A program made the translations under genes and the position numbers. A stretch of 64,000 nt of DNA from Eledone cirrhosa (Eukaryota), in the NCBI GenBank assembly GCA_964016885.1, contig OZ024743.1, forward strand, positions 304,234,001 to 304,298,000, written 5' to 3'. A model generated the notes under the pieces. That model worked only from the letters and a program-made list of their open reading frames with translations, ran no database searches and was not told the DNA's origin. Of this stretch, positions 249-59,149 are shown in pieces. Each line of letters begins with the position of its first letter. The first letter of the stretch is position 1.

Positions 249-3200
249 AAAGTTCTATTTAAATCTTGGGATACAACAAGCAAATATTTTTATAACTGAT
301 ATAAAGCACTCAAAAAATATTTGGAGTAAACATACAATATTAAAGGAATTAAGGAAGAAATACAAAGTAGCAAATAAAGACAACCTTGAAAAATTGAATA
401 CAGATGCCTCTTATATAATGCATGTACTAGGCATTGAAAATAGGACACAACCCTTCATGCCAAGGAAACCTAAGATTAATATGAAGGATCATAAAAGGAA
501 CTTCGAAACTGATTTACCAATCAGATTAATTGCACCATCTAAATCGGACCTTGGCAGACTTAGCAAAAATATTCTAGACAGAATAATACCACACATTAAG
601 ATTTTATCTTATTTAAAATTATGGAAAGGAACTAGTGAAGTTATCGATTGGTTTAAAGAAATTAAATATAACTATATTAATAAGTTTATTCAGTTGGATA
701 TTGCTAACTATTACTCATCTATCACTCCTAATCTACTGAATAAAGCACTAACCTACGCATTTAAACATACATACCTAACTAACATTACATTATCGGCACG
801 GAAAACATTAATAGAATTTAATAACCAACTCTGGACTAGGGCAGATAGAAATAATAATTTCGATATAACTATGGGATCATCCGATTCCGCTCAGGTAACG
901 GATCTTGTGGGCCTATTTATAAATAATTCTCTACATAGAAAATACCTGAGATAATCGGAGGTTTATATCGTGACGACATGCTTTTACTTATAGAAAATAA
1001 TAACTGTGAACTAAATAGATAAAGAAAACAAATTATACAATTTTTTTAATAACTTAATCTAAAAGTAGAAATAGAGAATAACCATAAAATAGTTAACTTT
1101 CTAGATGTAACACTACATCTTAACACATGTCTTCATTATCCATTTCACAAACTAAATGAGAACATAAATTACGTAAATTTTAACTCTAATCACCCCAGAT
1201 CCGTTAAAAATACTATAGTGAACTCTGTACAAGAACGAATTTCGAGAATTTCAGCTAATAAGAATATATTTGAGGAAAAAGCACATTATTACAACGAAGC
1301 GTTAGGTAGAGCTGGGTATAGAAATAAAATTAAATACATCGATAATAATAATAATATAACAACTATCCATAATCGTAACAATTTTAACTATGGTAACAAT
1401 TTTAACAACTATAATAGAAAACCTTACATTAATTCCGAAAGCCGAAAAAGAAATAGAACTCGGAACATATTATGGTTCGCTCCTCCTTTCTCATTAAATA
1501 TTAAAACCCCTATTGCTAAACTATTTTTTAAAGCTCTTGACAAATGCATAGATATTACTCATAGATATTACTCAATTTTTAATAGACATACTATAAAATT
1601 AACTTACTCTTCCACCAAAAATTTAGGGCAAAATATTAATAGAATTAATAATAGATATTTAAAACCTAACCAAAATACCACTAATAACCCAACCAATATC
1701 CAATTTGATAAATGTAACTATAGAAATGATGTAACTGTCCGTTAAATAACAATTGCTTAGCTAAAAATATAGTATATGTAAAAACTAATTTAAATTCATT
1801 TAATTATGAGTTTAAATCCCGCTTCAATAATCATAAAAATTATTTTACAGATCCAAACAAAAAATATTCAACTTCTCTATCTAGCCTATTATGGGACCTA
1901 AACAAAAGAACGTTGAATATTCGTTGATTTGGAATATTATTTCAAAAGCTACTCCTTTTATCTCCTCTTCAGAAAATTGTGATCTTTGTATAGAGGAAAT
2001 ATTCTTTATATTAAAGACCAAAAATTCCCTGAACTTAAGAAATAATGTATTCAGTTGCTGCAGACATAGATTAACCTCAACGTTTAAATATAAATATAAA
2101 TTTAAAATGTAGTATATAATTAATTAATTAATTTTAGTAATATATTGAACCTGTCGATAAATCATTAGATTCCTTCATCTTTTTTGACTGATTATACACT
2201 CAAGTAAAAATAACTTTTCTTCCTAAATATAAATAAATATAATAAACTATACTAGAGAAATGTATTGAGAGCTCTTGAAAGGAGAAAATATTTCTTATAT
2301 TTTTTTTTTTTATTGTTTGATAGCTTCTCCTATTTTCGAAAGTTTATCCTTTCAAAGTTTAAGTTAAATATACGTAAAGAATTTCTATACTAAATCTATT
2401 AAACATACTATTATTTTGAAATTATAACTTTAAATATTCCATAATATTTTAAAATGTATATTGTTTTTAAAGTTATATTGCTTATAATTATATTTCCAAA
2501 TTGTAATATAATTATTTTGTATTTTATGTACTCAATTATACTATGTACTGTATTTATATATACTTCTCTCTATATGTGTGTATATATGTATATGTGTGTA
2601 TTGACATACATGTACATATCTTTTATGCGTGTATGTCTATCTGTATGTATATGTATACGTGATGCGTATCTACCTATCTGTTGAGGGTACATATATGTAT
2701 GTATATGTGGGAATTGTGTATGTACATGTGCATGTATATCCATACAATTCGATTGCACTTATGTATAGTGATTATCCTAAGATTCGTGACAGATAGACAT
2801 ATAATAACAGCCATAAATACATAACAGGTAATCTTATAAAACTTATATAAACAAATTTTGTTTCATAACATAAAGTGTGTATAATATAAAATTTCCTTTA
2901 ATATCTTAACAATTATAACATTTTATAAGATTCCTACATCTTAAATTAAATTAAAGAACCCTTTATGTTTTGTGTGTATATATTATATACGTAATTAGAT
3001 ATGTATATGTATTTTATAAGTGTGTATATATATTTATATGTATGTATTTTTGCGTGTGTATACGTGTTATTTGATATGTAGATCTTTAATAATATATGGA
3101 TTTCTTAATATATAGTCCCAATTTTTAATATATTGATCTCAATATTTAAATGATTAACTAAACATCTAATCATATTTAAACAATGGTTACATTTCTCATA

Positions 3201-5286: not shown

Positions 5287-6926
5287 ATATTAATAAATGA
5301 AAACTATATTTATAAAACCATATTTATTTTATTGTATATATTTTCAGGGCAACCAAGGCAAATTATGGTCCGCTTTCATCATATAAAATACAGATTTGTT
5401 TTATAAATAAATATTGACATAACCGGAAAAAAGACGAATTTAACGGTTGGAGCTTCCTGGATAGTGGAGATAATATTTTATTGAGGGTAATACAAAGTTA
5501 TGAGTGAGTATGCAAATGAGTGTCCGAAAATTTGAAAAGATAATGGTTTATTTAAATTAAACTGTTGGAAGAGGATGATATGTAAAGGAGAGAAAAAAAG
5601 AAAAAAACAAAAGGAAGGAGAAAGAGAGAAGAGGAAATAAAGAACGATTATACATAGTGATATTGAAGAAAGTCAGAATGAATGAAGAAATAAGTTTTAA
5701 TGGAAAAATGTACATAGCGTAAATATATCTAAGTGAAAGAAGAAATAAGATTAACGTGGAGGAATAATATTTAGATTGTAGGGTTCATTGCGTTGTGATT
5801 ATAATATTTATAATGATAGGTTGAACAATTATATTAAAATTAAAAATTAGTAATCAAAATTAAAGATTAAAATTTGCCTTAATATTAAATATTTAATTTA
5901 ATAATTTAATATTAATATTAAAAATTTAAAAATTAAAAATTAAAAATTATAAATTAAAATTAAAACAGAAGTATTTATATTATATAAAATGTTTAACTTT
6001 ATAACATTTAATCCTTGGAATCATTTGAGATCTTAAAAAATCACTTCTAACCTCCTTTATATTTCCTTACTGTTTTAATAATATAATAAAGTAGTTATTC
6101 CTTTGTAAACTCTCATAAAGTTTCATAAATTTAAAATTATTTGGATGTTTAAATTTTGATTTACATCTATTAATAAATATAATTTTGCCAATCTTACTTT
6201 AATAAAATAAACTATACTATGTTTTCTCTAATGTAAAATACTATATATTTATTTAAATAATTTATAATCCTTAACATACACATCTAAACCAATATATTAT
6301 TACTAATACATCTTAATATAATATAAATACTTATGTTTTAATTTTAATTTATAATTTATAATTTTTATTTTTTTATTTTTTTATATTGATATTAAATTAT
6401 TAAATTAAATCTTTAATATTAAGGCAAATTTTAATCTTTAATTTTGATTTCTAATTATTAATTTTAATATAATTTTTCAACCTATCATTATAAATATTAT
6501 AATCACAACGTAATGAACCCTACATCGTAAATATTATTCTTCCACGTTAATCTTATTTCTTCTTTCACTGCTTCTTTCACTTAGATATATTTACGCTATG
6601 TAAATTTTTCCATTAAAACTTATTTCTTCATTCATTCTGACTTTCTTCAATATCACTATATATAATCGTTCTTTCTTTCCTCTTCTCTCTTTCTCCTTCC
6701 TTTTGTTTTTTTCTTTTTTTTTCTCTCTCCCTTACATATCATCCTCTTCAAACAGGTCAATTTAAATAAACCGTTATCTTTTCAACTTTTCGGACACTCA
6801 TTTGCATACTGACTCATAACTTTGTATTACCCTCAATAAAATATTATCTCCACTCTCCAGGAAGCTCCAACCGTTAAGGGTGTCTTTTTTCCGGGTATGT
6901 CAATATGTATTTATAAAACAAATCTG

Positions 6927-6992
6927 TATTTTATCTGATGAAAGCGCACCATAATTTGCCTTGGTTGCCCTTGAAATATATATAATAAAATA
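6927..6992 (+). ncRNA. Type I hammerhead ribozyme in 5' pLTR
   Basis: Perfect stem I tattttat/ataaaata, CTGATGA 6935-6941, stem II aag-gcacca/tggt-tgc-ctt, GAAA 6973-6976, TATATA, AUA (cleavage after 6984). Confidence 0.9.
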
Positions 6993-7179
6993 AATATTGT
7001 TTTATAAATATAGTTTCATTTATTAACATATTGTGTATTTACTCCACCAACCTCTTGAGTGCTTTATATATGTTATAAAAAAATGTCTAAGCTTGTTGAA
7101 TCCCAACAAATTAAATATAACCTCTGCATATTTTTTAGCTCCTTTATTGTTGAGCGCTTTAAACTATAACTGATTAAAA

Positions 7180-9357
7180 ATGGAATTCTTTAGGATCTCT
7201 TCTTCTCTAAAAGACATACCTCTACCTAAGAATAAGGACATTCTAAAACAACTTATCGAAAAATCGGACTCGTTTATAAGAAAACTTAGATGGCGTGCTT
7301 TTCATTTCGATAATAAATCTGATGCGAAAGAAAATAATTCCAATCTTGATAGAATCTTCAAATCCAAAAAGAATCCACCTTCCAACAAACTATTAATGGA
7401 ATTTGAAAATGAGATTATTTCTATCATACAAAACATTAAATTTAGGAAAAACCACTTTGTATTCCAGGATTACCTCAAACGTCTCAAAAATAATATAGAA
7501 AACTTTGAAAAAAAGGAAAACATTCTTGTTAAATCACATAAAACCAACAATCTTTACGGAATGCAAAAGGATGATTACAATAATTTATATTGAAGGAATT
7601 AAGAAAAAATTACAAAAGAGCAACCAGTGATGACCTTGAAAGACTAAATACTGAAGCTTCTTATATAATGCAGGAATTAGGCATCGAAAATAGGACTCAA
7701 CCTTCATACCTAGGAAACCAAAAATTAATTTGAAGGACTATAAAAGACATTTTGAAGTTGAATTACCAGTTAGATTGATTGCACCATCTAAATCGGACCT
7801 TGGCATAGTTAGCAAGAATATTTTAGATATAATCATACCACAACTTAAGGAAATATCTTATTTAAAATTATGGAATGGAACTAATGAAGTTATTGACTGG
7901 TTTAAAGACATTAAATATAAACATAACAATAAATTCATTCAATTGGATATTGCTAATTATTACTCATCTATCACTCCTAATTTACTTAATAAAGCCCTTA
8001 CATATGCATTTAAATATACTGATTTAACTAACAATGAAATGCACATTATCTTAACTGCACGTAAAATATTAATTAAATTTAGCAACCACCTTTGAACTAG
8101 AGCAGATAGGGATAACAATTTCGATATCACTATGGTGTCATCGGACTCGGCGCAATTAACGAATCTTGTGAGGATTTTTATTAACAATACCAGAAATGAC
8201 CGGTGGTTTATATCGTGACGATATGCTATTGTTTATTGAAACTAATAATAATTGTGAAATAAATAGGAAAAGAAAAGAAATTATACAATTTTTTAATAGC
8301 GTTAATCTTAAAATAGAGAATAATTATAAAATAGTTAATTTTTTAGATGTAACTTTAAACCTTAATACTGGTCTTTATTATCCATTTCATAAAAACCAAT
8401 GAGAATTTAAACTATGTTAATTTAATTCCAATCACCCCAGATCCATTAAAAACACTATTGTAAATTCTGTGCAGCAACGTATTTCTAGAATTTCAGCGAA
8501 TAAAAATATATTTGAAGATAAAGCACAATATTATAACGAAGCGTTAAGTAGAGCAGGCTATAGTAATGAAATTAAATACATTGATAATAAGGATGTGCCA
8601 ATTAACCATAATTATAAATATAATTATAATAGGAAACCTTGCACTAACTCGAAAATCGAAAGAAATAGAACTAGAAATATATTATGGTTCGGTCCCCCAT
8701 TCTCATTAAGTATTAAAACTCATTTAGCTAAATTATTTTTTAAAGCCCTAGATAAGTGCTTTCCTAAGACACACAGATATTACTCAATCTTTAATAGACA
8801 TACTATTTAACTCTCATATTCCACCACTATGAATTTAGCGCAGAATATTAATAGAATTAATAATAGAAACTTAAAACCTAACCAGAATAGCATTAATACC
8901 TCTAGCAATATCCAATATAATGTTACGGCTCCTAATAATATAAATTCAGATAAATGTAATTGTAGAAATAAATCGAACTGTCCTCTAAATAATAACTGTT
9001 TAATTAAAAATATAGTATACAATTGTAATGTCAAAACCAATGAAAATTCCTTTAACTATGTCGGCTCTACTTCCACAGACTTCAAATCTTGTTTCAATAA
9101 CCATAAATGTTCCTTTACGAATATCGGTAAAAATCTTCAACTTCTATATCCAACTTATTATGGAACTTAAAATCCAAGAATATTAAATATTCTTTATTTT
9201 GGGAAATTATCTCCAAAGCTCCTTGATACACGGCTCTATCCAAAAATTGCTCCCTCTGCGTTGAAGAAATATTCTTTATACTAAATTGCGAAATAATTTA
9301 TTTAGTTCTTGTAAACATCGTTTAAACTCAACTTTTAAATATATATATAAAATGTAA
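7180..9357 (+). pseudogene. PLE polyprotein (N-terminal domain, RT, CxCx5Cx5C linker, GIY-YIG EN), disrupted
   Basis: MEFFRISSSLKDIPLP, FIRKLRWRA, QLDIANYYSSI, GGLYRDDML, NFLDVTLNL, CNCRNKSNCPLNNNC, NIVY...YVGST. About 2.2 kb with stops and frameshifts. Confidence 0.92.
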
Positions 9358-10892: not shown

Positions 10893-11071
10893 AATATGGT
10901 TTTATAAATATAGTTTCCATTTATTAATATATTGTGTATTTACTCCACTAACATGTTGAGTGCTTTATATCACTTATAAAAATGTTTAAGCTTGTTGAAT
11001 CCCAACCTCTGCATATATATATATAGAGAGAGAGAAGAGGAAAGAAACAGAAAGTAAAAGAGAGATGCATT

Positions 11072-18354: not shown

Positions 18355-18507
18355 CATGCCTGAATAGCAATCTGGATCTAGCTGTCGAAACGGCCGGAGG
18401 TCAGCCGTCTGGGTACTGACACTTTTACTATTACCCACTCTACTACACTAAGTATCGAGTACTCTGGTGCGTTAAGGTCCTCCTGGTTTCTTACCACTCT
18501 TTGTTAG

Positions 18508-18550: not shown

Positions 18551-18733
18551 AACAAGTAAGACCCCGACGGCTGAGCTCAAAACGTTTCGACGGCTAATTC
18601 AGAATTAGCCGTCGAAACGGCTTGAGCACAGCCGTCGGGGTCTTACTTGTTCCTATTACCCACTCTACTACCCTAAGTATTGAGTACTTTGGTGCGTTAT
18701 GGTCCACCTGGTTCCTTACCACATTTCCTTCGT
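18546..18733. mobile_element. Fold-back pLTR fragment (palindrome 18546-18656) containing the HHR 3' half
   Basis: Axis at 18601 (ggctaattc-a-gaattagcc). GAAACGGCT-tgagcac-AGCCGTC forms stem III with GUC. Lies between (TA)n runs. Confidence 0.8.
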
Positions 18734-18750
18734 TATATATATATATATAT

Positions 18751-19630
18751 ATGTCTTGGAATTTAGTCCACGCTTGCTTTTTTCCATCCACTGAATTATG
18801 TTTGTATACGTTCCCTGTGTCCACGCATCACCTGGTAACTTAGCTGAGAACAGACTTCCTGATGACGAAACGGCTTCTCCATGCTTTCCATTTGGAAACC
18901 ATGTTTATTCCCTTTCAGAAACTAATTAGTTTGAGTGAATTTTAGAAAGTAAGTTAATTTTTATAATTTTCTTATTTTACGTCTTTCATATAATTGTTCT
19001 GCATCCCCTTGCATTGAACCACAAAGTTACTAAGACAAAACCTATATATTTGCTAGCATAGGTATGCACCTGTATATATATATGTTGGTAGATATACTAA
19101 TTCTTTATAATTATCTCCAAATTATTTTGTTGAGCAAAAATTTGCCAAAACTGCTACTATAGTTCATAGTAATGGCTCGGCTAGTGTCTTTTTACACCCC
19201 ACTGCTCACTGATTAACCTCGATGTCACGTGATTGATCCTTTTGAATTTTCCACCGACCACGTAGGCAGTGATTTCTTCAATGTCTTGGAATTTAGTCCA
19301 CGCTTGCTTTTTTCCATCCACTGAATTATGTTTGTATAAGTTCCCTGTGTACACGCATCGCCTGGTAACTTAGCTGAGAACAGACTTCCTGGTGACGAAA
19401 CGGCTTCTCCATGCTTTCCATTTGGAAACTATGTTTATTCCCTTTCAGAAACTAATTAGTTTGAGTAAATTTTAGTAAGTAAGTTAATTTTTATAATTTT
19501 CTTATTTTACGTCTTTCATATAATTGTTCTGCATCCCCTTGCATTGAACTACAAAGTTACTAAGACAAAACCTATATACTTGCTAGCATAGGTATGCATC
19601 TGTATATATATGTTGGTAGATATACTAAGT

Positions 19631-19695: not shown

Positions 19696-19846
19696 ATTTT
19701 CTACAGGACTAGAACTGCTTCCTTCGTGAGAAATCATCAGGAAACAGTTCTAGTGCCGTAGAATCTATGCTATATTAAAACATGTAAATTCTGCTATGTA
19801 TTGAGTACCTTATTACTGTGGTTACCTCTGATTCAACCCGGAATAA

Positions 19847-20520: not shown

Positions 20521-23226
20521 TTTCATACAATGGATTTCACTCTTAAGAGGATCTTCTGAATCTAAAACAATCAATCTGTGAACGCAGAAGTAAATATTTC
20601 CAAAAACTTTGCAGTCGAAGAAAGACAGGAAGACGATACTTTGGTTCCTGGAGGCGTTCCCTGGCAATCGACGGAAAAAAGCGAAGATAATACGTCATTA
20701 TTTGGAACGTTTGAACAATTACACGCAGACAAAACAACGTTTATGGTATAAATGAAGTCGTAAACTAATATTCTATTTAGGTGGTTCGTGGAGACGATCC
20801 TTGGCAATGAAAGGAAAAAAACGAAGATAATACGTCATTATGTGTTGAAATGAGAACATTTACACGCAAAGACAAACCCATGTATACGGTATAAATGAAG
20901 TTGTAGACTAACATTCTATTAAGGGAATCGAATGATTCTCGGCTTCAGAGTTAAGTATAATGTAAATAAATTACAGAGGTTATTGAAATCAACGACAATT
21001 ACATATATGGTGGTTTGTACTGTGATGACGGTCTTTTGACCATGAAACAGTGCGGCCCACGAGCTTGCGAGAGGTTAAAAAAAACACTCACAGCCTTATT
21101 TAAAGGCTTCAACCTCTCCATACAGGTTGAGGCCAACCTCTCAGTCGTTAATTACCTCGAGGTTACCCTCAATTTGTCGAATGGCTTCCACTACACGCAT
21201 AGAAAGCCGAATGATACGCTTAATTACATAAGTAAGCATTCTAACCATCCTGTCAGCATAACCAAGAACCTGGTAAGAAACTTTTCTTTGAGGCTTTCCC
21301 GTCTATCTACAAACGAGCATATTTTCACCGACCATTCCACATATTACGATGAAGCTCTTGCCCTGAGTGGATTTGTCGATAAGGCAGCATATACCGAGTA
21401 TGAGCATAGACCTAGGAAAATAGATCCCGACGCATTATATGGTATAACCCACCATATAATATGGAGGTTGCCTCAATAATATCTAAGATCTTTATCTCCC
21501 TTAAGAAGCATTTCCCCCCAGCACATAAATATAAAAACATTTTAATAGTAATACCATTAAAATGTCTTACTCTACGACTCCTAATATTGCACGTAACATC
21601 ACTGCTTCAAATTTAGCTAAATTACCTAGCCGTAGGAACACTTGCAACCCTGTAGCTAGTACTAACTGTAATTGTAGGAATCGGGTTGACTGCCCCCTAT
21701 CCGGGAAATGCCTCTGCTGTAACATTGTCTACAAATGTAAGGTTGAAACACCCACGTCCCGTAGGGCCTACATAGGGTTAACGGCCAATAGATTCAAGCA
21801 GCATCCTTAGATGCATATCCATTCTTTTCTTAACCCTTTAAGAAGGAATATGACGTCACTTTCAGCTTATATCTGGAGTTTAAAAGACAACCACGCTCAA
21901 TATAGTTTATCCTGGGAGATCCTAGTTGAGGCTAGATCGTATAACTGAAATAAAAGACCATGTGACATTTGCGCCGCTGAAGCCCTGGAAATACTCTACG
22001 CCAATAACCCCATCTTAACCAAAACCTCTGAGGACATTTCGGTTTGTAGACATAAATTGCATAAAACTTTGCTGTATTACAGCCCCACATTATACCATAA
22101 CAGAGAGTACGAACAATACGCGGATAATTTACGTCTTGATGTGGGAGCTAATTATATGTTATGTTTATACCATTACTTATTTGTATAGGTATGTATATAT
22201 TACCTGTATGTTTTGTGAATGCACGTATACTTTCTCGTATGTATATTTGCTTGTATTTGTTATAGGTGTATATATTATATTATATATACTGGTACATGTG
22301 TATATGGTTATCTGTATACGTGTAATTTGCGTTTGTGTGTGTATGCGGGTTTGCACCTATGTAGGGTGTGTGTATATGTGTACTTTGTGTTTTGGTTGAC
22401 GTTCGTTTAGCGAACAAATGTGTATTTACCTGTAGGTATGTGTTTGCGCGCGTTATATGCGTATTTATGTATGTATATTTATATACGTTTATATAATTAT
22501 ATGTATACACGCACACACACATATATATCAATATATGTATTTATGTATTTTTATGTGTATTTGGTGTATATGTTCGTATGTGCGAGTGTACAGGTGTTGT
22601 GCGGGCTTTTGTATTTGTGCGCGTGTTTTTGTGTACGTGCTTGTATATGCATACCATTGGCGGGTGTTTTCGCGTATGCATGTATATGTACGTATTGGAT
22701 GTGTGCATGCATATATTTAATTTGATTCCAATAACCTCTGTAATTTATTTACATTATTCTTAACTCTGAAGTCGAGAATCATACGGTTTCCTAAATAGAA
22801 TATTAGTCTACGACTTCATTTATACCATAAAGGTGGTTTTCTCTTTGCGTGTAATTACTCTCAACGCTCCAAATAATCGTTTCTACATTAGGCACAAGGC
22901 CAGCAATTACCCAGTGCATTACTGCTCCAAATAATAACGTATTATCTTCACTTTTTTTTCCTTCTTTGCTAAGGAACGTCTCCACGAACCTAAGTGTCGT
23001 CATCCTGCCTTCTTTCGGTTGCAACGTTTTTCGAAATAGTTACTTCTGCGTTCTCAGATTGATTTTTTTCAGTTTCAGAAGATTCTGTTGAGAGTGAAAA
23101 CAGCGATTCTTTGCTTAAACTTTAGTCTGTTATTTTAATAAATATTTGTTCTAGGGTTCTTATATATTTGAAATATTTATCCTTATCGAGCCCTCTTTGG
23201 ATTTTAGTCTAAAAATTTATTATTAT

Positions 23227-26935: not shown

Positions 26936-28375
26936 CTGTTTTTGTTCCATGTTTCAGAATTAATTAAAATGATTACTAGTTTACCTCGAGTGAACAGTAA
27001 TACTTAATAGGGTAGAAATGTATCCTATCAAATTTTGTAAATATGTATAAATCCTTTTAGTTTAATAAATAGAGCTATATATTTGCATTTATAGTGTTTT
27101 TGTTTCATATTTTCATGAAGGCTGCTACATTACTGTATTCGCTTTCTGTATTTTACCGCTTTAGGGCTTGCTTGTGGCATTGCGTGAAACATTTTGAAGT
27201 GGTATTTAACAGTCATGTTTGGTGTATGTTTCAAGCTAGATGTGTCACTTTGAAGTCTCTTCTTAATTTAGAACCTAATGTTTGGTCTTCTACGTTTATC
27301 AAACTGAAAGTGCTATAGTAAATATTTGAATAAATGGAAACTTTGAATGTATGCTTCTTGGAATCATAATACGTATCAGTTATGTTCAATGATATCATTA
27401 TATTCGATATAGTACTTGGGAGTCTGTATGGGCTTTTAAAACTAACAATTATGACTATGTTAAATAGCCCGGATACAAATTTGTTCAGTAGTTAATTATT
27501 TCATGGCATAAAACCTATATTTACTTATATGCTGTGTGGGCGCTTACGCCTGATGTATTTCAGCTTTTGCCGACTTGTATAACGAACATTTATATACAAT
27601 GTACCACGCATCTGTTATTGTGTGGACTGCGATTAACGTTAAAATGTTTCTGGTACGATGACTTCATCTATTGTTGTTTGACTTTATATTCTACGTTTAT
27701 TTCACAGGGAAATTATAATTTGTGTGATGTATTTAGTCTAGCTCAGTCGTGTATATTGGTATTGGAGTTATATAAAGAAAAATGACATATATTGTATCAG
27801 GTCTCTGATATTGTCTGGACTAAGAACTCTGAGATGCAGTATCTTTGCGATCGAGTGATTATTATCATATACAAGAACAAAGAAGAAATATTCGACCGTA
27901 GATTGTTGTGCTCTTCACTGCAAGGAGCAGAAACGTAAGTATGAATGACCTAATGCATACTTTCGCAGAAACCCCCACAAATAAAAAATCTGACAGGGAG
28001 CCAACGTGGATTTAAGTCACCGTTTTCAGAAAGTTCTAAGAGAAATGGTTGTAAATATAACACTGTAAACAAGAGGTCAATAATATCACAATCTTCCTCT
28101 CATCACCATCGATAAAATGGAAGCGAAGAATGTTCACCATTACAACTATATCAAAGGCAAACACTAAAAACAAGCTGATAACAGACTGACCAGTGCAAGG
28201 AGTACTTTCCCGATAAGCCGGTAAATATATATATATATAGATGTAGATAAATCTACCAAAATGTACGGTAGTGTCCAATCCGTATGAAGAACTCGATGTA
28301 ATCCGAATATCATGAAAAGAGAAGATGTATTCAAAAATTGTTTTCGATGAAAAATACAGGAAAACAGAGTCAAGA

Positions 28376-31300
28376 TAAATTAATAAAAATAATGAATAAA
28401 CAAAGAAACAGTTCCTTATATTAAAAAATTCATCATTTTACGATCGTTTCTAGGATATATATGTTAGTGTTGGTATGCATATCCTATAGATATATGTAAA
28501 ATGTTTACAAACTATCAGAAGGAATATACATACCTACACATATATATGCTGTCTTCAGAAGTAATGATATTTGTTTATTGAAAAAAACCAACAAAGATTT
28601 AATACAATAGGTCTGTTTGGGAACAGGTTTTGAATTTACCAATAGAAAGATAGTGAAGGTCAAGATGGTAAAATAGTAGTAAAAGAACCTTAATTTATGG
28701 GTAGAGGAAGGTAGATTTCAGTTTTGGATGGAAAGAATATTATGAATGAAATATTATTTTAGGGATGAAAATAGGTCATATGCTGTCTTCAGAAATAATT
28801 ATATTTGTTCATTGAATAAAACCAACAAAGATTTAATATAATAGGTCTGTTTGGGAACAGGTTTTGAATTGACCAATAGAAAGGTAATAACTGGCTAAAT
28901 GGTAAAATAGTAGTAATGGAAGTTTAATTTAGGGATAGAAGAAGGCAGATTTCAGTTCTGAATGGAAGGAGTATGAAGAGGGAAAAGGTTATTTGAGGGG
29001 TGAAAATAGGTCAGGTCGGTAAAAGGTACACGAAAAATTGCTGTTATAAAAGAATAATGCCAATGTAAATATCTAAGGAGACTAAAATTTTACGATAAAA
29101 GTGTTAGAGAAAAAAAAATATATATGGAATTTACATCTATGAAAATAAAATAAATTAATTTAATTGCTAGGTATATTTATATTGATAAAATTATATTAAT
29201 GCATATAGATATGATAAATAAGAGTTAGATGTAATTGAAGAGTGCTGTTAAAGACGAGGGGAAATAAAAAAATATATATGTATAATTATTGGGGTGGGGT
29301 GGGGGGGGGGGGGTAAATTTATTAGTGAGAAACAACAAATATATAGAGATTACAAGGAACATAGAATCATAACCTGAAATTAAAACAGTATATATGTATA
29401 CTTAATGGTATCAATTTTAGGAAAAGATAGTTGTAATAAGGAAAATAAAATGATGTAGTTCATTAGTAGTAGAATATTAATTATAGGTTAACTAAATTAA
29501 AAAAGGTGTTGTTATAATAATTTCTAACGTGTATATTAATTAGGTTTATAATATTTAAAGGTTTTTCTCAGTTTATGATTACACGGTATTATTAATTCCT
29601 GTCGCATATTTAATAGGATATCCTTAGATTTCATTATTTCAAAAAATTCTTGGGAACACAATCTACATTCATATCTATTATTTTGATAAGGGGTGGCCCT
29701 TTTGAGCACACTCCAGGTCAGGTCATAATCTATATTCCTCTTTCTATAATTATTGATTATTTCAGCTAAAGATGTTGTATTAGCTAATGCGGCATTTTTA
29801 AAACTGTGTTTGTGGGTATTAAATCTTACTTTAAATTGGTTAGAGGTAGCTCCTATATATGAATAAATTGAGTCCTTAATGTTAACTTTACATTTATAGA
29901 CTATGTTATTAACAAGGCAATTTCCTTTTAATGGGTAATTTGCTTTGTTTCTACAGTTACAACTTTTCGTGAATCCTGTATCAGAGGAGATATTATGGTT
30001 AGTTTGATGTATTGGTGGTATACTCATGGTTTTTTTTACATTTATATGCATTATAGGCACTTATATTTTGTTTTATGTTTTTGGTTGTGGAGTAGGAGAA
30101 TTTAACCGTTGATCTGTTTAAAATTTGATGGTATTTGTGGTTGGGCGGGAAGTTCTTCTCTAGGATATAAAAAAATGTCTTAGGTATATTATCTTTAATT
30201 TGTAAATTAAATGGAGCATTATACTAAGTAACTCGTCTATTACGGTTTCGATGTTGTTTATTATTTTTATAGGATGTATCCTGATGTTTATTAAGAGAAT
30301 TATTGTTAATGACTTCACCACACACATTTTTAGTTAGATTCATTGATCTAGGTGTTTTAGCTTGTTTATTAGGAGTTTTATTATTAACATTTATTAGAGT
30401 AGTAGGATGAATAGTTTTTTGAGAGTTACTATATTGAATATTAGAAGAGTTAGAGAAATTTGGTTTTATGTTGGTATTTTTGGGTATAGTGTGAGTGGCA
30501 TTTAGGTGTGTATGTTTAATTTGGTGTTTGTTGGTAATATTAGGTTGTATGTTTTTAGAGTTATTGGTACAAGGTATATATACTAATTTATTTTTGTGGT
30601 CACTTCTAGCTAAAGCTTCGTTATAAAAGGTCGCATTTTTATCAAATACATCCTGGTTAGACGAAAGGTTAGAAATTCTGAGTGAGATATTATATGCTAG
30701 GTTTTTAAGGATAGATTTAGGGTGATTAGATTGTGAGTGTATGTAATGTAAGTTTTGGTTAGGTTTATGGTAAGGTTGGTAGATACCCGTAGATAAGTCT
30801 AATGTTATATCAAGGAAATTAACTACTTTACTTGTGTTTTCAAATGTAATATCTAGATTATAATAGTCTTTGAGGAAAGTTCTAATAAGCTTTTTATTTT
30901 TTTCAATCTCTGAAAGGTGAAGTCATTAACAATAATTCTCTTAATAAACATCAGGATACATCCTATAAAAATAATAAACAACATCGAAACCGTAATAGAC
31001 GAGTTACTTGGTATAATGCTCCATTTAATTTACAAATTAAAGATAATATATCTAAAAAAATGTTTTATTTCCTAGAGAAGAACTTCCCGTCAAACCACAA
31101 ACACCATCACATTTTAAATAGATCAACGATTAAATTCTCCTACTCCACAACCAAAAACATAAAACAAAATATAAGTGTCTATAATGCATATAAATGTAAA
31201 AAAAAACCATGAGTATACCACCAATACATCAAACTAACCATAATATCTCCTCTGATACAGGATTCACGAAAAGTTGTAACTGTAGAAACAAAGCAAATTG

Positions 31301-32850
31301 CCCATTAAAAGGAAATTACCTTGTTAATAACATAGTATATAAATGTAAAGTTAACACTAAGGACTCAATTTATTCATATATAGGAGCTACCTCTAACCAA
31401 TTTAAAGTAAGATTTAATACCCACAAACACAGTTTTAAAAATGCCGCATTAGCTAATACAACATATTTAGCTGAAATAATCAATAATTATAGAAAAGAGG
31501 AATATAGATTATGAACTGACCTGGAGTGTGCTCAAAAGGGCCACCCCTTATCAAAATAATAGATATGAATGTAGATTGTGTTCCCAAGAACTTTTTGAAA
31601 TAATGAAATCTATGGATATCCTATTAAATAAGCGACAGGAATTAATAATATCGTGTAATCATAAACTGAGAAAAACCTTTAAATATTATAAACCTAATTA
31701 ATATACACTTTAGAAATTATTATAATAACCCCTTTTTTAATTTAGTTAACCTATAATTAATATTCTACTACTAATGAACTACATGATTTTATTTTCCTTT
31801 TTACAACTATCTTTTCCTAAAATTGATATCATTAAATATACATATATACTGTTTTAATTTCAGGTTATGATTCTATGTTCCTTGTAATCTCTATATATTT
31901 GTTGTTTCTCACTAATAAATGTACCCCCCCCCCCCCCCAATAATTATATATATATATATTTTTTATTTCCCCTCGTCTTTAACAGCACTCTTCAATTACA
32001 TCTAACTCTTATTTATCATATCTATATGCATTAATATAATGTTATCAATATAAATATACCTATCAATGTAATTAATTTATTTTATTTTCATTGATGTAAA
32101 TTCCATATATATATTTTTTTTCACCAACACTTTTATCGTAAAATTTTAGTCTCCTTAGATATTTACATTGGCATTATTCTTTCATAACAGCAATTTTTCG
32201 TGTATATTTTACCGACCTGTCCAATTTTCACCCCTCAAATAACCTTTTCCTTCTTCATACTCCTTCCATTCAGAACTGAAATCTGCCTTCTTCTATCCCT
32301 AAATTAAACTTCCATTACTACTATTTTACCATTTAGCCAGTTATTACCTTTCTATTGGTCAATTCAAAACCTGTTCCCAAACAGACCTATTATATTAAAT
32401 ATTTGTTGGTTTTATTCAATGAACAAATATAATTATTTCTGGAGACAGCATATGACCTATTTTCATCCCTAAAATAATATTTCATTCATAATATTCTTTC
32501 CATCCAAAACTGAAATCTACCTTCCTCTACCCATAAATTAAGGTTCTTTTACTACTATTTTACCATCTTGACCTTCACTATCTTTCTATTGGTAAATTCA
32601 AAACCTGTTCCCAAACAGACCTATTGTATTAAATCTTTGTTGGTTTTTTTCAATAAACAAATATCATTATTTCTGAAGACAGCATATATATGTGTAGGTA
32701 TGTATATTCCTTCTGATAGTTTGTAAAAATTTTACATAGATCTATAGTATATGCATACCAACACTAACATATATATCCTAGAAACGATCGTAAAATGATG
32801 AATTTTTTTATATAAGGAACTGTTTCTTTGTTTATTCATTATTTTTATTA

Positions 32851-32855
<5 letters not shown>
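28376..32855. mobile_element. Head-to-head pair of 5'-truncated PLE copies (minus 28376-30915, plus 30916-32855)
   Basis: 28376-30319 is the reverse complement of 30916-32855. Both encode CNCRNKAN(C/Y)PLKGN...NIVYKC...YIG...CRLC. 30320-30915 is extra minus-strand RT (NFLDITLDL, SNHP). Confidence 0.93.
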
Positions 32856-32910
<55 letters not shown>

Positions 32911-32915: not shown

Positions 32916-33125
32916 AGGTTACACAACAGTTAGTTCACCACACCGAGAAACAATTGTTTCACCTTAGCGGAACCTCAGCTCGTAAGTTACGAGCTGAGGA
33001 TCCACTAAGGTGAAACAATTATTCTCGGTGTGGTAAACTAACTGTTGTATAACCACTTCTAACTAACTCATGCCATGGACTGAGTGCTCTACCACTACCG
33101 ATATTACCTTCCAGTGTTCTACCGC
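32911..33125. mobile_element. Fold-back pLTR (palindrome 32911-33060) with two minimal HHRs
   Basis: Axis ctcgtaa-g-ttacgag (32986). + strand: cgag-CTGAGGA-tcc-actaa-ggt-GAAAC-aatt-att-ctcg, mirrored on the minus strand. Lies between (TA)n runs. Confidence 0.8.
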
Positions 33126-33843: not shown

Positions 33844-34166
33844 CGTGTAATTGTTTTCAAAGCAAAAAATAATGACGTATTATCTTCGTTTTTTTCCGTC
33901 TTTGCCAGGGAACGTTTCCACGAATCAAAGTATCGTGTTCTTGTCTTCTTTCGGTTGCAACGTTTTTCGAAATATTTACTTCTGCGTTCACAGATTGTTT
34001 TTTTTTAAAGTTTCAGAAGATTCCGTTAAGGGTGAAAACAGCGACTCTTTGCTTAAAATTTAATCTGTTATTTTAATAAATATTTGCTCTACGGTTCTTA
34101 TATATTTGATATATATTTATCCTTATCGAGCCCTCTTTGGATTTTAGTCTTCACATTTATTATTAT

Positions 34167-44226: not shown

Positions 44227-47200
44227 GTGGAGCGCAGAACGGTGCATTACAGATGCATCTCAGCAGAAAGCAACAGGGCAGCTTTAATTCCACAAGCATA
44301 TGTCGAAGTCACGCTGAAGTGCATCAGGGATGACACCGAATACATAGCGAGGGGCAGACAGTACGGCACCATTTCGGTGCTGTTTAAATCAGAAGCCCCC
44401 GCTATCAAACATGCTATGTAACTTTGCAAAACCAGCAATGTCACAATGTACTCCTCCCACATTGGAAAAAGAACAGCCCGTCTCCGCATTCCCAGAATCC
44501 CTCAAGGACATGATATGTGGTGGCTTCTGAGATGTGTGATTATGGAGGGGACGGATACCGTCCCGATAGAAGTAACAAGAACTGCCAGAGAGGACTGGTC
44601 CAGGGTTGACCTGTAGATACTTTTCTAGATCAGGCTGGAGAATGTCAAAACAATCCCGCATCGGACCACCACTGTCTTCAGAATGGGACGGTAATTCACA
44701 TTATGACTGAGGGGATAAGGCGGCATTGTTTCGTTTGTGGGAAAAAACCTATTTGCGAGCCATCTGCCCTCAACTGCTGAAAGATCCAAGTGGTCGAAGG
44801 GTTCCACTGCCGCCGACGCCGGGGAGAGGACCACAACCAACACTAGCACCGGCAAAACCACCTGCAACAACACCAATAGAAACACTACCAACAACATAGA
44901 TCACCCAGGGGGAAACGAGGAAAGTTGTGCAATTCCCCCTCCCCCCAAAAAATACACACATCAATAAAAACATAAACACACACAGAGACACACTTACAGA
45001 CGCACCTATCATCTACCAGTAGTGAAAATGATGGGGAAACCCAAATCCCCCAAAATACAAAAGAGGAAATATAAAGAGAAAAAAACTCAACAAAGCACAA
45101 AAACACCCACAATAATATTACAGACACCACCCACGCAAACATCACCCCAACAACACCAACATCAACACCACCATCACCATCACCAGAGTCCCCCAAACGC
45201 AAACACCCTAAACAGACGGAAGAACAAATACGAACACAAACACTGAAACCACAGACCCTGCCCTCACAACAAACACAGACACAACCGAAACAAAACCATC
45301 AAAACCATCACCACCACAACCACGGAAACAAATAAAATCACACCATTAAAACATACATATCTTTGTGCTTGTGAGAAGGGCCAACAAGGAACTGATGGCC
45401 CTCGTAGCATGAAGTAAAGAAATACAAAAAGAGGGGTGATATTTAAATCGAGCACATTTCGCGTGCCGGAAGATTTGTTTCTGGTGCGAATGTTACTCGA
45501 TTTATACAAAGAGATACGAGACAGGTTTCCTCGGGACGTGGGATCCCCGAGCGTAAAACCCACTTCAAGACATTTAAAGGGGTTCCCAAAAGAAATCCCA
45601 CCAACTATGGAGGTCGACATACCCTACCTTCACAAGAGCCCGGAAGGTAAGTAAACCTTTCCTATCTCTTTTAGCCTGCCAACATGACGGTATTAAGAGT
45701 AGGAAGTTTAAATGTTCGAGGCCTGATATCGTCCTGGAAGTAGGGTCACCTGCTCAACGACCTCAGGTCTCTAAAAATGGATGTAATTGCCGTCAGCGAG
45801 ACCAGAAATTCCGACACGCGCCCACTAGCCCCCATTTTCTACGACTATCAGATCTTTGCATCTGTTAGTCGGCCAGGAATGGGATGTGGGGTAGCAGTGG
45901 TGTTTAGGAAAGGCCTGGATCTCGAGGTAAGGTCGATCTTCCGGGACCTGGACGGTAAGTTGGTGGTCCTGCACGTGAGCAATAGCGAAGTGGGACTTTT
46001 AGACTGGTGGCTGTCTATGCCCCCACTTGGACAGGGCGGCCGGACTTCTTTAGACGCCTGGAAATCTTTCTGGGTACGTCTCGCCTATTACTGTTAGCGC
46101 ACGCTGGGACTGTGTGTGAGTATCTGATAGAAGCGGGGGTGCAAAAGCCTCAAGTACCTGTTTAGCTAGTTCCAGGTACCGACTACATTTCCCTAACGCG
46201 CCAGTGTGGACCTGGACAAATTGTTTAGGGACATATACATCGTACTTAGATAGGTTTCTAATTAGATTAGTGGACAAGGATAGTATAGGGTGTCCACAAT
46301 TATATATGGTCGCCTATTCAGATCACAAGTTTGTGATCCTTATGGTCGATCTAAATGAGACGCGTAGGTTAGGACCTGGTTACTGGAAGCTGAACATGTC
46401 ATTTCCGGCACGAAAGGCTTACAGGGACCGGGTCAACAATTTAGTTAAGAAAAAGGTTGACAGCGGAAGTCGTCAACAATAGATGGTGGGGGCACTCAAA
46501 AGACAGATTAGAGTAATCTGGATAGGGTTTAGCAAAGAAGTAGCGTTAGAGAAAAATAGAAAGGAGTGGGAGCTGGTAGAGAAGTTAGACGAGGCTATTT
46601 GTAGTGGCATTGCAACTGATGTGCTAGAGGCGAGAATGGCATTAGATAATTTCTTCAATGTGAAACAGGAAGGTTGCATTGTCAGAGCTAAGGCGTGTGC
46701 TCTGAGAAACGAGGGAATCAAAGCTGTTCGGTGGGCCCGAGTGGTAGAGGCGCAGGGTGGTAATAAAACAACGATTCGGTCTTTGACTAACCGAGATGGA
46801 CACGAGATCAGCGACTCCAAGCGGATGTGTGAGGCCTTTCGCCAACATTTTGCTCAGTTTTACGGGGGAAATGGAGGGTCAGATACGGTGGCGGACTTCA
46901 GTCCCAACCTCGATGCCTTGCCACAACTCTCGACGGCCGACGCTGAGCTCTGCGAAAGGCCGATTACTTCAGCCAAGATTCAGGATGCCCTTGTTGGCTG
47001 CATGAGACATACGCCACCCGGTTTGGATGGTCTACCCTACGAGCTTTACGTAAAAATACCAGTCTTGTTTTCCGAACTCCTCGAAGCGCTCTACTGCAAC
47101 TGGCAGCAGAACGGGAGTATTCCCACTTCTGTGAGCCGACGCTGATGAGGAAAGACGAGAACAAGAAGGACACATTAGACAATTTCAGGCCCATTACTCT

Positions 47201-49352
47201 GCTCAACAGAGAGTTTAATATTTTGGCCAAGGTTTTAACGAAGAGGTTGGCGCTTGTCGTCGAGGATTTTTTGGGGGAGGCGCAACTTGCGCAATCCCGA
47301 CCAGGTTCATACACTGTAACCTCCACCTTAGGCGATACATCATAGAGAGTGTAGGGTGTAAACCTGGCTTCGGTGGGGCTCTTATCAATTTAGATCAATC
47401 GAAAGCATTCGATAGGGTCGCCCATCGGTACCTGGAGGCTGTCCTCAAGGCGGCTGGCTTCGGCCCCGTTTTCAGAAGCTGGATCGCTGCAATGCACAGC
47501 GGCACCTGCTGGTTTGTCAAAATTAATGGCCACCTCTCGGAACCCTTTCTGGTCTCCCGATCGGTCCGTCAATGGTGCCCTCTCTCCTCCCTTTTGTACG
47601 TATTGACTCTCGAGCCTTTACTGCGGAAGCTGGAGCTGTTGCAGAGCATCCCACTCAAACCAGGACGCGAAAAGGCTGTGTCGGTTATGCGGACGACATC
47701 ACAGTGATGGTGGCGGACAGCTCAGAAATCGAGGTGGTCGGCAACTTATTGGAGGAATATGAAAGTTTGACGGGAGCAAAACTTAACCCGGAAAAGTCGG
47801 GGGGCTTGCAACTCGGAACCTGGAAAGGTAAGTCCATGCTGTCCAACAGCGTCGTTAGGCGCTGGACGGACGGACCGGTAAAGTTGCTCGAGGTTTTGTT
47901 GGGGCCTGACCTCCAGGTGAATAAGAATTGGGACGAGGTGACGGGCAGGGTAGCCAGTCTCACCCGGAAATCGGCTGCGAGGAACTATCACTGAAACGTC
48001 AGGAGGAGGTGGCGAACGCGTACATCGCCTCCGTCATCTACTACTTCCTGGCCGTCGTCCATTTCCACCGTTCGCGCCTCGCCAACTTGGAACGGCACCT
48101 CTTCAAATTCTGGTGGAGGGGACAGTTTCCGTTTGAGAGGCGGTCCATCTGCTGCCAGCATCCTCTACGTGGGGGGTTGGGAATGCCGTGGTTAATTTAG
48201 CGCAGACATGTGCTGGGGCTGTGGCATCTCCAGATATTCTGCCTAAACGGTGAACAGGTGTGGTCACAGTTTTTTAGACGGGCCTTTCCGCAGCTCGTTT
48301 CCTTCACTGAGCTGCAATCCTGGGTCAGAGACGAGTCCTAAACTGGCTGACTGGCATCTGAAATGTTGCCAGGAATTCACTGTCCTCTATCAGGCGGTCA
48401 ATCCGGTCATGGAACTTCCGCTCTCGAGATCTATAGAGGATTACTGGTTGGCATGTGCGGTGATGCACTGGGAGAGGCTCTGGGGTCGACGAGGTCGAAC
48501 TAACCAGTCTGATCCGGAGGACTTTCGAGCCGGGGACGATGGATAATTTCCAAAAGTCCCTCGCTTGGCAGTGTTACAGGGAGGCACTTCCGTTTCGATA
48601 TAAACTCTACAGGCACGGAAGTGATGTCAGACGGACCTGCCGGAGATATGCGCAGAGCGACGAAACCGTTCTGAACGCACTTGTACAGTGTCCGTGCATT
48701 ACTGACTTGTGGAGTTATGTCAAACAGCTGTTGTCGCGTGTAGAACGGATCCGGCTATTGGCCGAGTCCATAGTGAAGATCGACCCACCGCCTTTTTTTG
48801 GCCAGGAAGGGCAGGCAATGTTCCTTTCTCTGGTGGCTGTAGCGAAAGAGGTTGTATGGTGGACGAGGTTGAAAGGACTGAAGAAAGACACTTTTCTCTT
48901 CGGCCAATCCCTCATCAACATTTTCAAGTTTCACTTGGAAAGGAAAGTGAGGGTGGAAAGAGAAGTGCTGCCCATAGGACATTTGCTGAAAGATGGGTGA
49001 AAGAACATTTGCTGAAAGAACGTGTGAGTGGGCCAACTCTGATCATGCGCCTGTAGGTAGATGAATTTGAGGAGCAGAGGGGTGCCCTTCCCGGGTACTA
49101 TCTAAGCGTCGGGTCGTCCAGGATTGGTGGGGTACCTGAGTGAATCCTGGGTGGTCATCCCCCCTATTGTGGAATTGTCCTTGTATTTTTATCGTTATTT
49201 TGTTATTGTTACTTATGATGTTTACACGTTAGATATATGTAAACCCCCACTGTTCCAGTCTTTTGTATTGTCCCCTATACGTCGGCCCTTGGGGCCAATA
49301 ATGAAACTATTATTATTTTTACTATATTAATATTATTATTATTATTATTATT
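44227..49352 (+). mobile_element. Tx1/L1-clade LINE, copy 1 (5'-truncated ORF1 plus ORF2, (ATT)n tail)
   Basis: ORF1 remnant with CFVCGKK knuckle and T/N/Q-rich low complexity. ORF2 has APE, RT and zinc finger. Ends in ggccaataatgaaac(TAT)n. Confidence 0.92.
45684..49056 (+). pseudogene. LINE ORF2 (APE-RT-zf), disrupted
   Basis: GSLNVRGL, AVSET, YLDRF, SDH, GPGYWKLN, PGLDGLPYE, NFRPITLLN, DQSKAFDRV, VRQWCPLS, YADD, GGLGMP. Confidence 0.92.
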
Positions 49353-49548: not shown

Positions 49549-51491
49549 ATGGCTGGGCCACAGCCCCCAGCAATATGTCTGCTGTCGTGTGACAACGACG
49601 TAAAAGTTGAGAGGAGGGTTAGTGAAATTCATGCAACAAACACCACCACAAACAACGTGAACAAAGACAACACAGAACACTAATTTAAAAAGAAATTACC
49701 ACACCAACTACAACAATAACAGCGTCAACCAAAATACAGACAACAGAAAAAGATGACAACACATGCAACAACGATATTAACACCACAAACAAGAAAATAA
49801 ACAACGACAACACCAACAGCAACAATACAAATTGCACTGAAAACAACAACAACGGTGGCACCAAAAACAACCAACTACAACATTGAAAACAGCAACAACA
49901 CCGTTTGTAGCAGTAGCAACAGCACCAGCACCAAAAACTAGACCAGTAGCATCAGTAGCGGTGCCGTTAAAAAGGGGCCAGTTCTTTCGCAGGTGTGGCC
50001 CGAAATATAGAGACAGTTCTAGTCACAGAGGAGGAGATGGCAGTTGCAAGAGGCATGGTGACAAGGAATGAAGATAGAGTTTCCCTGAAACCTCCACCCG
50101 ATTTCTTCAAAGACCAGCAGCTGCGCACGGTGATTTACGCACCGTAAGCAAATGTCACATCGGGTGGAGAGATCCACGGAGGTTCAAATCCAAAAGGCCT
50201 TGTCGGGGTGCGTCTGGGCGCGCAAAACAACACATCACCTGAGGCAAAATGTACGCCACAGTAGATGTACTTTTCGCCTCCCCCAAAAGCCGAAGTCTCA
50301 CTCTTTCGAGACCCTAAAGAGTAAGGAGTTACTCTTTGTGCCCTCCTACTGCGGGCAGAAAATTGTGATGGTCAAAGTGACCCAGGCCCCGCCAGACGTG
50401 GCCATACCTTAGCTGGCCGCGTCTGTACAGGCTCGAATCGAGCAGAAGACCACCATACTGCGAATACAGAGAATGAGAAGAGAGAACTGGTCAGGAATAG
50501 GCATGCACATGTGACCGGGAGTGCATCGAGGCCATCCGAGATATCATAGACCTCGAAGAAGGACTCCAGCTTCCTATAAGAGTGGAGGAAAGGCGCCCAA
50601 AGTGCTATCTCTGTGGGCAGAAGGGTCACCGCAGGGCCTTTCTGCCCACAGAAGACAGCCAAGAAGACTGCCCATCTCCTTTGGACGCCTGATTCGCTGC
50701 TACCAAGAGCAGGGCAGGCAACAGAGGCAGAAGACACATCCATGGTGAATAGGAGGGCAACGTCCCTGTCACCCATACCAAGGCCACGGACAACTAAAAG
50801 AGTGGCAGCAGCAGTGGCGGCAACACCAACAATCGCAGTAGCTACACTACCATCACCAACAACAATGGAGATCATAACCCTCCCAGACGCCACGGAATCC
50901 GATATGGAGTATGAAGCGGGAGGGATGTGGCGAACGGTCTGCAACAAAAAAAAACAAAAAATGAAAAACCCCTTAGCTCCACCCTCCAAAAGTAAAGGCA
51001 AACGAAGAGGGGTAGAGGCTGCAAGGAGACTTGCAGCAACACCACCACCATCACCACCACAAGCATCACCACCACCAACAACCGCACCGCCACCAGCATC
51101 ACCAAAATCACTAACATCGCAAACACAACAGAATACACACCCAACAGCAAGAAGAAGAAAACATCAACAAAATCAAACCTCCTCCCAAAAGATTACACAG
51201 CCATAAACATGGCAAGTAAAGAACTCTTACAACATATAAAGCAGCACACAGACATCACAGAACAAAAAACTACTACACCCACCAACACCAAGAACTCTCC
51301 CGACAAACATAAGCATCATTGAAATTAAAATAGAACAGTACAAACTTTTAATACAAAAATTACCCAACACAGTTGGAGACTGTAGAGGGTTGGTTACCAA
51401 GAGGATATACACCGACATGCTCTTGGAAACACCCATGACCAGGCAAAGGGACGGATCTACTGTCCCTTCACCACACGATCGAGGTAAGTAA
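49549..51491 (+). pseudogene. LINE ORF1 (gag-like, CCHC knuckle), disrupted
   Basis: CYLCGQKGHRRAFCP (CX2CX4HX4C) at about 50606-50647, with T/N/P-rich low-complexity flanks. Confidence 0.7.
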
Positions 51492-51523
51492 TCCTTTCTC
51501 ACTTACCCCGTTTCTCATCCAAC

Positions 51524-54500: not shown

Positions 54501-54772
54501 TCGCCATCCTCCTTTAAAGAGGAGGAAGGGCGGGCAGTTTTCGTCTACCTGGTGGCCATGGCGAAATAGATTGTGTGGTGGACAAGGTTGAAAGGGTTGA
54601 AGACGGACACTTTCCTCTCCGGCCAATCCTTGATTAACTTTTTCAAGTTTCACTTGAAGACGAACATCAGGGTGGCGAGGCAAGTCCTGTCTTCTAGTAA
54701 GTTTGTTGAAAGGTGGGTGAAACGGCGAGTCTGGTCTGAGTGAACGGGCCCGCTCTGAAAATGCGTCTGTAA
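51524..54772 (+). pseudogene. LINE ORF2 (APE-RT-zf), disrupted
   Basis: MAVLRIGSINVRGL, AISEN, VYTP, GDW, NFRPITLLN, DQSKAFDRV. Colinear with 45684-49056. Confidence 0.92.
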
Positions 54773-58949: not shown

Positions 58950-59149
58950 NNNNNNNNNNNNNNNNNNNNNNNNNNNNNNNNNNNNNNNNNNNNNNNNNNN
59001 NNNNNNNNNNNNNNNNNNNNNNNNNNNNNNNNNNNNNNNNNNNNNNNNNNNNNNNNNNNNNNNNNNNNNNNNNNNNNNNNNNNNNNNNNNNNNNNNNNNN
59101 NNNNNNNNNNNNNNNNNNNNNNNNNNNNNNNNNNNNNNNNNNNNNNNNN
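58950..59149. other. Assembly gap (200 N)
   Basis: Run of N beginning inside a microsatellite. Confidence 0.99.

Follow-up and report, generated by a model that had tools for sequence, protein, structure and literature searches.

The reverse transcriptases (RTs) of Penelope-like elements (PLEs) are the sister group of telomerase RTs. Structured RNAs recognized by an element's own RT are known from the R2 3′ untranslated region (UTR) and from hepadnavirus epsilon. The 3′ stem-loops of LINEs and SINEs, such as that of eel UnaL2, are likewise recognized by the element's own RT, and non-coding partners are copied too (PMC1636434). PLEs of the Hydra clade, as described in PMC8557442, have just one open reading frame (ORF), which encodes an RT plus a GIY-YIG domain at the C terminus, with RWR/RWK, DKT, and CxCX5C motifs, and insert into (TA)n targets; they carry a hammerhead in the pLTR, an inverted 5′ arm, and a tail on one side only. 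The one-sided tail is already known (PMC8557442; PMC3846280). In PAc, a Poseidon element of Anolis, the tail is bounded by two internal RT start sites and both target strands are extended; the target is AT-rich, RNA 3′ of the start is needed, hammerhead cleavage is dispensable, and a dimer is predicted (PMC11167929). Initiation in PAc is described as occurring inside an AC-rich stem-loop, a description in which no conserved or covarying signal is defined (PMC11167929). Non-LTR retrozymes are tandem non-coding repeats with type I hammerheads, and their mobilization by PLEs has been proposed (PMC7229834; bioRxiv 10.64898/2026.07.22.740005).

We analyzed a stretch of 64,000 nucleotides (G000:C4:304234001-304298000, here called the window) from the 3-Gb AT-rich genome of Eledone cirrhosa, in which many repeats are inserted into (TA)n. 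An earlier note on this DNA had proposed that a covarying hairpin recurs downstream of the hammerhead in PLE families. The hairpin is a real, clade-wide, and apparently undescribed cis element of this known group of retroelements; what is new is that the one-sided tail is tied to a single RNA element present in two copies. The note had known of no description, and we found none in the full-text literature, a coverage that excludes most subscription journals and the Repbase notes. The words "stem-loop" and "hairpin" do not occur in the main text of PMC8557442. By eye, the hairpin is clear in three of the six novel Hydra consensus sequences of that paper (one coral and two sea cucumber sequences), weak or deviant in two, and not evident in one (PMC8557442).

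Families in the window and their Hydra-clade protein motifs

Judging by protein motifs, the five coding families are one group, belonging to the Hydra clade of PLEs. They had been taken for unrelated and unalignable families. The first part does not stand, as their proteins share 33 to 48% identity; the second does, as no alignment of the UTRs was obtained except between families A and D, where 41 nt around hairpin 2 align at 78%. Because the families with the hairpin form one clade, its presence is a matter of homology with structure kept and not of convergence. Motif inspection of the intact 716-amino-acid ORF of family B (L330:1459-3609) indicates the Hydra-clade architecture, an RT followed by a C-terminal GIY-YIG domain, and the translations of families A and B contain RWR, DKT, and CxCx5C motifs (the clade is defined by RWK-type, DKT, and CxCX5C motifs); a Pfam search gave no match. 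The family A ORF (positions 7180 to 9340, plus strand), with RT and C-terminal GIY-YIG, is interrupted by stops and frameshifts. Insertion into (TA)n is also as in the Hydra clade, with 557 copy ends joined to (TA)n versus 165 that are not. Hydra-clade PLEs are described as shorter than 3 kb, though only as a general feature; the intact ORF of family B lies within tandem units of 3,531 bp. These arrays, with a period of ~3.5 kb, were found in L330 (G000:C1:437199001-437209000), L331, and L332; L330 holds two near-identical intact copies of the ORF and is a candidate for biochemistry. No RNA run was among the matches listed when a family B stretch was compared with sequencing runs.

Families D and G are non-coding and have units of 1.3 kb and 530 bp, respectively; neither of them matched the protein of family B. 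Family G (18.75 to 19.64 kb) is a tandem repeat with a 530-bp period and a type I hammerhead in each unit and in these features fits the published description of non-LTR retrozymes. The available text on retrozymes names no shared cis signal (PMC7229834; bioRxiv 10.64898/2026.07.22.740005), whereas the non-coding units here keep both hairpins. About 50 kb before the window, L275 and L276 contain a retrozyme-like multimer of 550- to 580-bp units related to family G, with a hammerhead in each. Other repeats in the window include a non-LTR retrotransposon that is richer in GC, has RT-like frames, and is not related to PLEs; its two diverged copies (45645 to 49002 and 51482 to 54722) share 66 to 69% identity. 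A further Hydra-like 3′ region, which contains a 236-bp tandem repeat, forms a 1.9-kb inverted duplication (28375 to 30319 and 30916 to 32856) at 97% identity. An assembly gap of 200 bases occupies 58950 to 59149.

Two predicted bulged hairpins in the 5′ UTR of nearly every family

The predicted hairpin usually has an RCUC/GAGY stem, a 2-nt bulge on its 3′ side, and an RCU flank, and it is present in two copies per 5′ UTR. We refer to the short copy end, at hairpin 1, as e1 and to the long copy end, at hairpin 2, as e2. In family A, hairpin 1 (7041 to 7065, plus strand; stem 7041 to 7060, UU bulge, RCU flank) has e1 about 7 nt on its 5′ side (38 ends, modal distance 7 nt), and hairpin 2 (7138 to 7160, plus strand; stem 7138 to 7155) has e2 7 to 9 nt on its 5′ side (46 ends, modal distance 9 nt). 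The stretch from one copy end to the other (7034 to 7131, plus strand) is the tail and includes hairpin 1. A further family A hairpin 1 (10942 to 10961, plus strand) lies in a 3′ pLTR that stops in (TA)n near 11013 and hence lacks hairpin 2, and hairpin 1 of an A-related subfamily (308 to 327, minus strand) lies in an inverted arm. Family B has hairpin 1 at 18437 to 18460 and at 18662 to 18685 (both plus strand). The latter belongs to a head-to-head insertion in which the inverted arm runs to e1 and the direct arm to e2 (~18733); hairpin 2 of this family is seen only in read-through copies elsewhere, not at the 18662 insertion. Hairpin 1 of family C (33066 to 33085, plus strand) has a 1-nt bulge, and the direct arm ends near 33125.

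Family D has hairpin 1 at 62737 to 62772 and hairpin 2 at 62680 to 62696 (both minus strand). Hairpin 1 of family E (19788 to 19806, plus strand) contains a U-G pair by mutation, with ACUC in other copies. In family F, hairpin 1 (34086 to 34131, plus strand) has a long loop with internal pairing and recurs in a second copy at 23148 to 23191 (plus strand); hairpin 2 is present in read-through copy L114. Family G has hairpin 1 at 18996 to 19019 (plus strand; GUUC/GAAC, compensatory at pair 2), again at 19526, and hairpin 2 at 19114 to 19135 (plus strand), where the first pair is mismatched.

All 13 sequence strings quoted in the earlier note are present at their positions, and 11 are genuine as given. 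At 62736 to 62765 (minus strand) the register was wrong, the stem beginning at the first ACTC (62772 to 62737). The GAGT of 18907 to 18936 is the 3′ strand of helix I of the family G hammerhead, with GGAGT in most other copies; the real family G hairpins were located from the position of copy ends. Duplication of the hairpin had been noted for two families; it is genuine but occurs in nearly every family, and the 3′ bulge had been overlooked. As a loose pattern (RYTC, 9 to 38 nt, paired GAGY), the motif is no more frequent than chance, with 197 instances in the window versus 172 ± 18 (maximum, 204) in 40 block shuffles. A stricter form, with a 4-bp stem, a 2-nt 3′ bulge, a pair above it, and a C in the flank, occurs 23 times versus 10.1 ± 3.7 (maximum, 18). 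The real signal is the position of the hairpin relative to copy ends, not the frequency of the loose pattern. An Rfam search of the window gave no matches at the gathering score, and two weak matches in 6880 to 7200 were far below threshold. A SECIS identity of the hairpin was ruled out by position and sequence, judged against the familiar features of SECIS elements.

Copy ends lie just 5′ of the hairpins

Every family has two points at which its copies in the genome end, and each of these points is just 5′ of one hairpin. Across families A to G, 509 of 557 (TA)n-joined ends in fetched loci are 0 to 12 nt 5′ of a hairpin (203 at hairpin 1 and 306 at hairpin 2), with family modes of 5 to 9 nt; these loci were partly chosen by query, and the 165 ends not joined to (TA)n are unclassified. 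The same held in an unselected 950-kb sample of 95 stretches that were chosen only by their coordinates (200 kb of it flanking the window), in which 109 of 119 (TA)n-joined ends are 0 to 12 nt 5′ of hairpin 1 or 2, against an expected 5.9%, the share of the references covered by the scored windows; 44 ends in this sample that are not (TA)n-joined are unclassified. The linker from end to stem mostly starts with TA, consistent with short pairing between primer and template. Where the window lacks a hairpin 2, the end rule predicts one past e2, and it was found in families B and F. In family C, hairpin 2 is present with an insert of ~80 nt and a 1-nt bulge, and family E shows no more than a short, bulge-less stem. 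Hairpin 2 is thus deviant in families E, C, and G (first pair mismatched), yet the ends there are still sharp, which counts against a docking role. So do 13 ends in family E that form an additional e1 cluster, at 17 nt. The hairpin spacing gives tails of ~70 to 120 nt, compared to 30 to 40 bp described for the Hydra clade (PMC8557442).

Blind clustering of 2,251 (TA)n junctions gave 95 clusters, from which 24 without a read-through copy, 18 belonging to families of the earlier note, and 8 of low complexity were removed, leaving 45. In 19 of these 45 other clusters the motif is located between −4 and +14 nt relative to the end, versus 2.9% in shuffles and 4.1% in upstream windows; by eye, 4 or 5 of the 19 are due to chance or misassigned, three pairs are related, and cluster 8 is a juxtaposition of two families. 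The 26 clusters without the motif include other repeats and other hammerhead families. In clusters 36 and 39 (L233 and L298), the read-through has ACUC 9 nt past the end, but the short stem that follows is another one; the element may be present there in a diverged form.

The hairpin as a general feature of PLEs was not supported, since family H and other hammerhead clusters are without it. Three 8-mers of the 3′ half gave 11 matches in the Naiad and Chlamys consensus files, by eye unrelated to the hairpin. Families H and I (L212, L217, L238, L242, and others) are abundant, bear hammerheads, and end in (TA)n; the two ends of family H are ~62 nt apart with no RCUC hairpin after the first, and this family may use another signal. 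L236:6619-9719 (minus-strand positions) is a tandem array of 11 units of 310 bp from a family unrelated to A to G, and every unit has a canonical hammerhead.

Head-to-head arms and the hammerhead

Where both ends of a head-to-head insertion are at a hairpin, the two arms nearly always end at different hairpins. Among insertions in fetched loci with both ends at a hairpin, 96 combine e1 with e2, 2 are e2+e2, and none is e1+e1; a further 98 arm pairs, each with at least one unclassified or read-through end, were set aside. In the unselected sample, 25 of 26 pairs are e1+e2, one is e2+e2, and none is e1+e1, where independence would give about half (19 further arm pairs set aside). An overlap of at least 3 nt is seen at the inner junction in 35 of 99 arm pairs, which is weakly consistent with joining via inverted homology.

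A link between the hairpin and the 5′ end made by the ribozyme had also been proposed, and neither distance nor arm structure favors it. The cut site is 25 to 64 nt from hairpin 1, compared to modal distances of 5 to 9 nt for copy ends, and of the 109 arms in the unselected sample, just 2 stop at the cut site and 90 run through it; overall, 10 of 533 arms stop there. Arms that run through the cut agree with the uncleaved RNA template used in vitro for the Poseidon element (PMC11167929). A descriptor search placed a type I hammerhead motif of family A at 6927 to 6992 (plus strand; predicted cut between 6984 and 6985) and a family G hammerhead with a long helix II at 18854 to 18936 (plus strand), which contains the false hairpin site at 18907 to 18936. 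The hammerhead core is canonical in families A, C, D, E, and G. In family F (the window region at 34037 and copies in fetched loci) the core reads CAGAAGA, not CUGANGA, in 42 of 42 copies, and the core of family B is deviant, although this family has an intact ORF in tandem arrays. To judge from these cores, the abundant families F and B may have inactive or variant ribozymes.

Conservation and covariation among relatives in other animals

The family B protein has 2,216 relatives among 8,000 scored candidates, and an alignment of 53 relatives used as a query led to 76 metagenome loci. Of these loci, 47 had 140 nt or more of sequence ahead of the estimated start of the ORF, and they were collapsed to 37 non-redundant sequences, all from marine metagenomes; no relatives were found in viral contigs. 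At least one hairpin is present in the UTRs of 27 of the 37, a count that is not fully blind, as a descriptor requiring three upper pairs missed short-loop forms and was relaxed after that output. Two hairpins are present in 24 of 37. Dinucleotide shuffles of the same UTRs gave 2.0 sequences with at least one hairpin (maximum, 7) and 0.1 with two (maximum, 2), and the controls gave 1 of 37 on the reverse strand and 5.5% in ORF windows. Eight of the 10 relatives without a UTR hairpin have covariance-model matches elsewhere in the contig. Seven contigs contain an internal copy along with a (TA)n end, and in six of them this end lies 6 to 11 nt before the stem.

A covariance model built from 45 foreign hairpins only, after 8 mis-anchored ones were dropped, recovered 8 of the 13 window sites previously reported (E values up to 10) as well as hairpin 2 of family G, and its best match in the window is hairpin 2 of family A (7138 to 7160). 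It missed the sites at 7041, 33066, 62772, and 19788, along with the false site at 18907. Among 53 instances with anchors picked by sequence alone and pairing not imposed, the first pair is Watson-Crick in 45 (35.6 in permutations, which ignore kinship), the pair above the bulge in 46 (26.5), and the next upper pairs in 36 (16.1), 30 (13.6), and 24 (15.1). Alternative registers with a 0-, 1-, or 3-nt bulge pair at or below chance. The bulge is UU in 35 instances, UC in 13, and UA in 5. In the alignment, 97.6% of cells are paired, compared to 82.3% when shuffled and at most 53% in slid registers. The three central pairs are almost invariant and therefore yield little covariation signal. The change of the first pair from G-C to U-A has one origin (support, 0.99) on a 32-sequence RT tree and appears in both hairpins, and changes in the pairs above the bulge, as judged by eye, seem to be spread over several distinct lineages; this tree comprises sequences from this genome and the metagenomes alone, without published references or outgroups. 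A conserved, covarying structure common to coding and non-coding families, as originally proposed, is thus borne out by conservation and compensatory changes. Counts of G-U versus A-C pairs are compatible with RNA or DNA and with either strand. The hairpins are weak in context, which counts against them: the probability of the second pair ranges from 0.00 to 1.00 across 13 hairpins and is <0.3 in 6. Since in context they are often not the predicted minimum-energy fold, stabilization by protein must be assumed.

A proposed docking signal for two internal starts

A role for the hairpin in RT binding or priming, suggested previously, is plausible from these sequence patterns. Our preferred reading, to which we give a probability of roughly 70%, is that the hairpins are a docking signal in RNA by which two internal starts of reverse transcription are positioned, yielding the one-sided tail. 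On a tandem transcript left uncleaved, the RT-endonuclease protein would bind to the stem together with the bulge and the RCU flank; it would cut (TA)n DNA, and the DNA 3′ end would anneal to UA(U) 5 to 9 nt 5′ of the stem. With priming 5′ of the stem, the hairpin would never be copied into the arm started there. Both cut strands would be primed, one per hairpin, possibly by a protein dimer, a step that leans on the published prediction for another clade. The arms would then join head to head, with the tail only in the arm started at hairpin 2. A copy standing alone would have no hairpin 2 at its 3′ end and would be dead; this would account for the requirement for copies in tandem. Mobilization in trans would be open to non-coding units that carry both hairpins.

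PAc belongs to another clade, and its RNA differs in sequence from the hairpin families, which counts against it as a precedent; its template as printed in PMC11167929 is without the twin bulged motif. By eye, that template contains a bulge-less UCUC/GAGA stem in a larger hairpin, ~8 nt 3′ of the start at +111-118, and this stem, which lies within the region required for activity, is possibly an analogue of the hairpin (PMC11167929). In LINEs and R2 the signal is part of the copied region and is located 5′ of a terminal start, whereas the hairpins here are doubled and lie 3′ of an internal start. Membership in the LINE-type class of 3′ stem-loops was therefore rejected, each hairpin being 3′ of the copy end that it marks and outside the copied arm.

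The motif might instead act in DNA, if the endonuclease recognized its own copy or cDNA, single-stranded or extruded, and cut 5 to 9 nt away, so that the ends would reflect resolution of an intermediate. Such a role would be in line with the ascription of the tail to endonuclease-mediated resolution (PMC8557442), with the requirement of the D. virilis endonuclease for tail sequence in recognition, as summarized in PMC11167929, and with the wobble counts, which DNA could also produce. We nevertheless consider it unlikely: arms that end at e2 are without hairpin 2, which is thus not readable in that cDNA, recognition of duplex DNA would not need compensatory changes, and the ends of the Poseidon element coincide with RT start sites on RNA (PMC11167929). 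Somewhat less probable again is that the hairpin is a stop, its complement on an antisense transcript halting cDNA 5 to 9 nt short in the manner of the telomerase template boundary element. A Watson-Crick stem can fold on both strands, and an antisense template with self-priming has been proposed for head-to-head structures (PMC3846280). However, the fixed ends join (TA)n via short UA homology, as a priming site would, while the other ends vary, and sense RNA served in vitro as a template for the Poseidon element (PMC11167929).

We give the least credence to the hairpins being sites of RNP assembly or translation control, with the ends set by something nearby, such as the UA-rich linker. Their location within ~40 to 140 nt of the start codon in coding families would suit this role, as would the sharp ends retained at deviant forms of hairpin 2. 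Against it, non-coding families D and G retain both hairpins, and although UA-rich stretches are common in the UTRs, a pair of 13-nt windows takes in 109 of 119 ends.

Implications for PLE mobilization

A more specific form of the docking reading is programmed twin priming, in which a dimer of the telomerase-like RT-endonuclease on the two hairpins of one RNA would start one cDNA per cut target strand; we hold this at slightly worse than even odds. If true, the hairpin would be a portable start signal lying outside the copied region, and twin priming would account for why the tail is one-sided, why one arm is inverted, why copies in tandem are required, and how retrozyme-like RNAs are mobilized. 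The hairpin can be used to mark where elements begin and end and to recognize non-coding partners, and it may offer a way to direct the start of an RT to a chosen internal point of an RNA. Template choice and the origin of the tail and inverted arm in PLEs become a question that can be addressed directly by mutagenesis.
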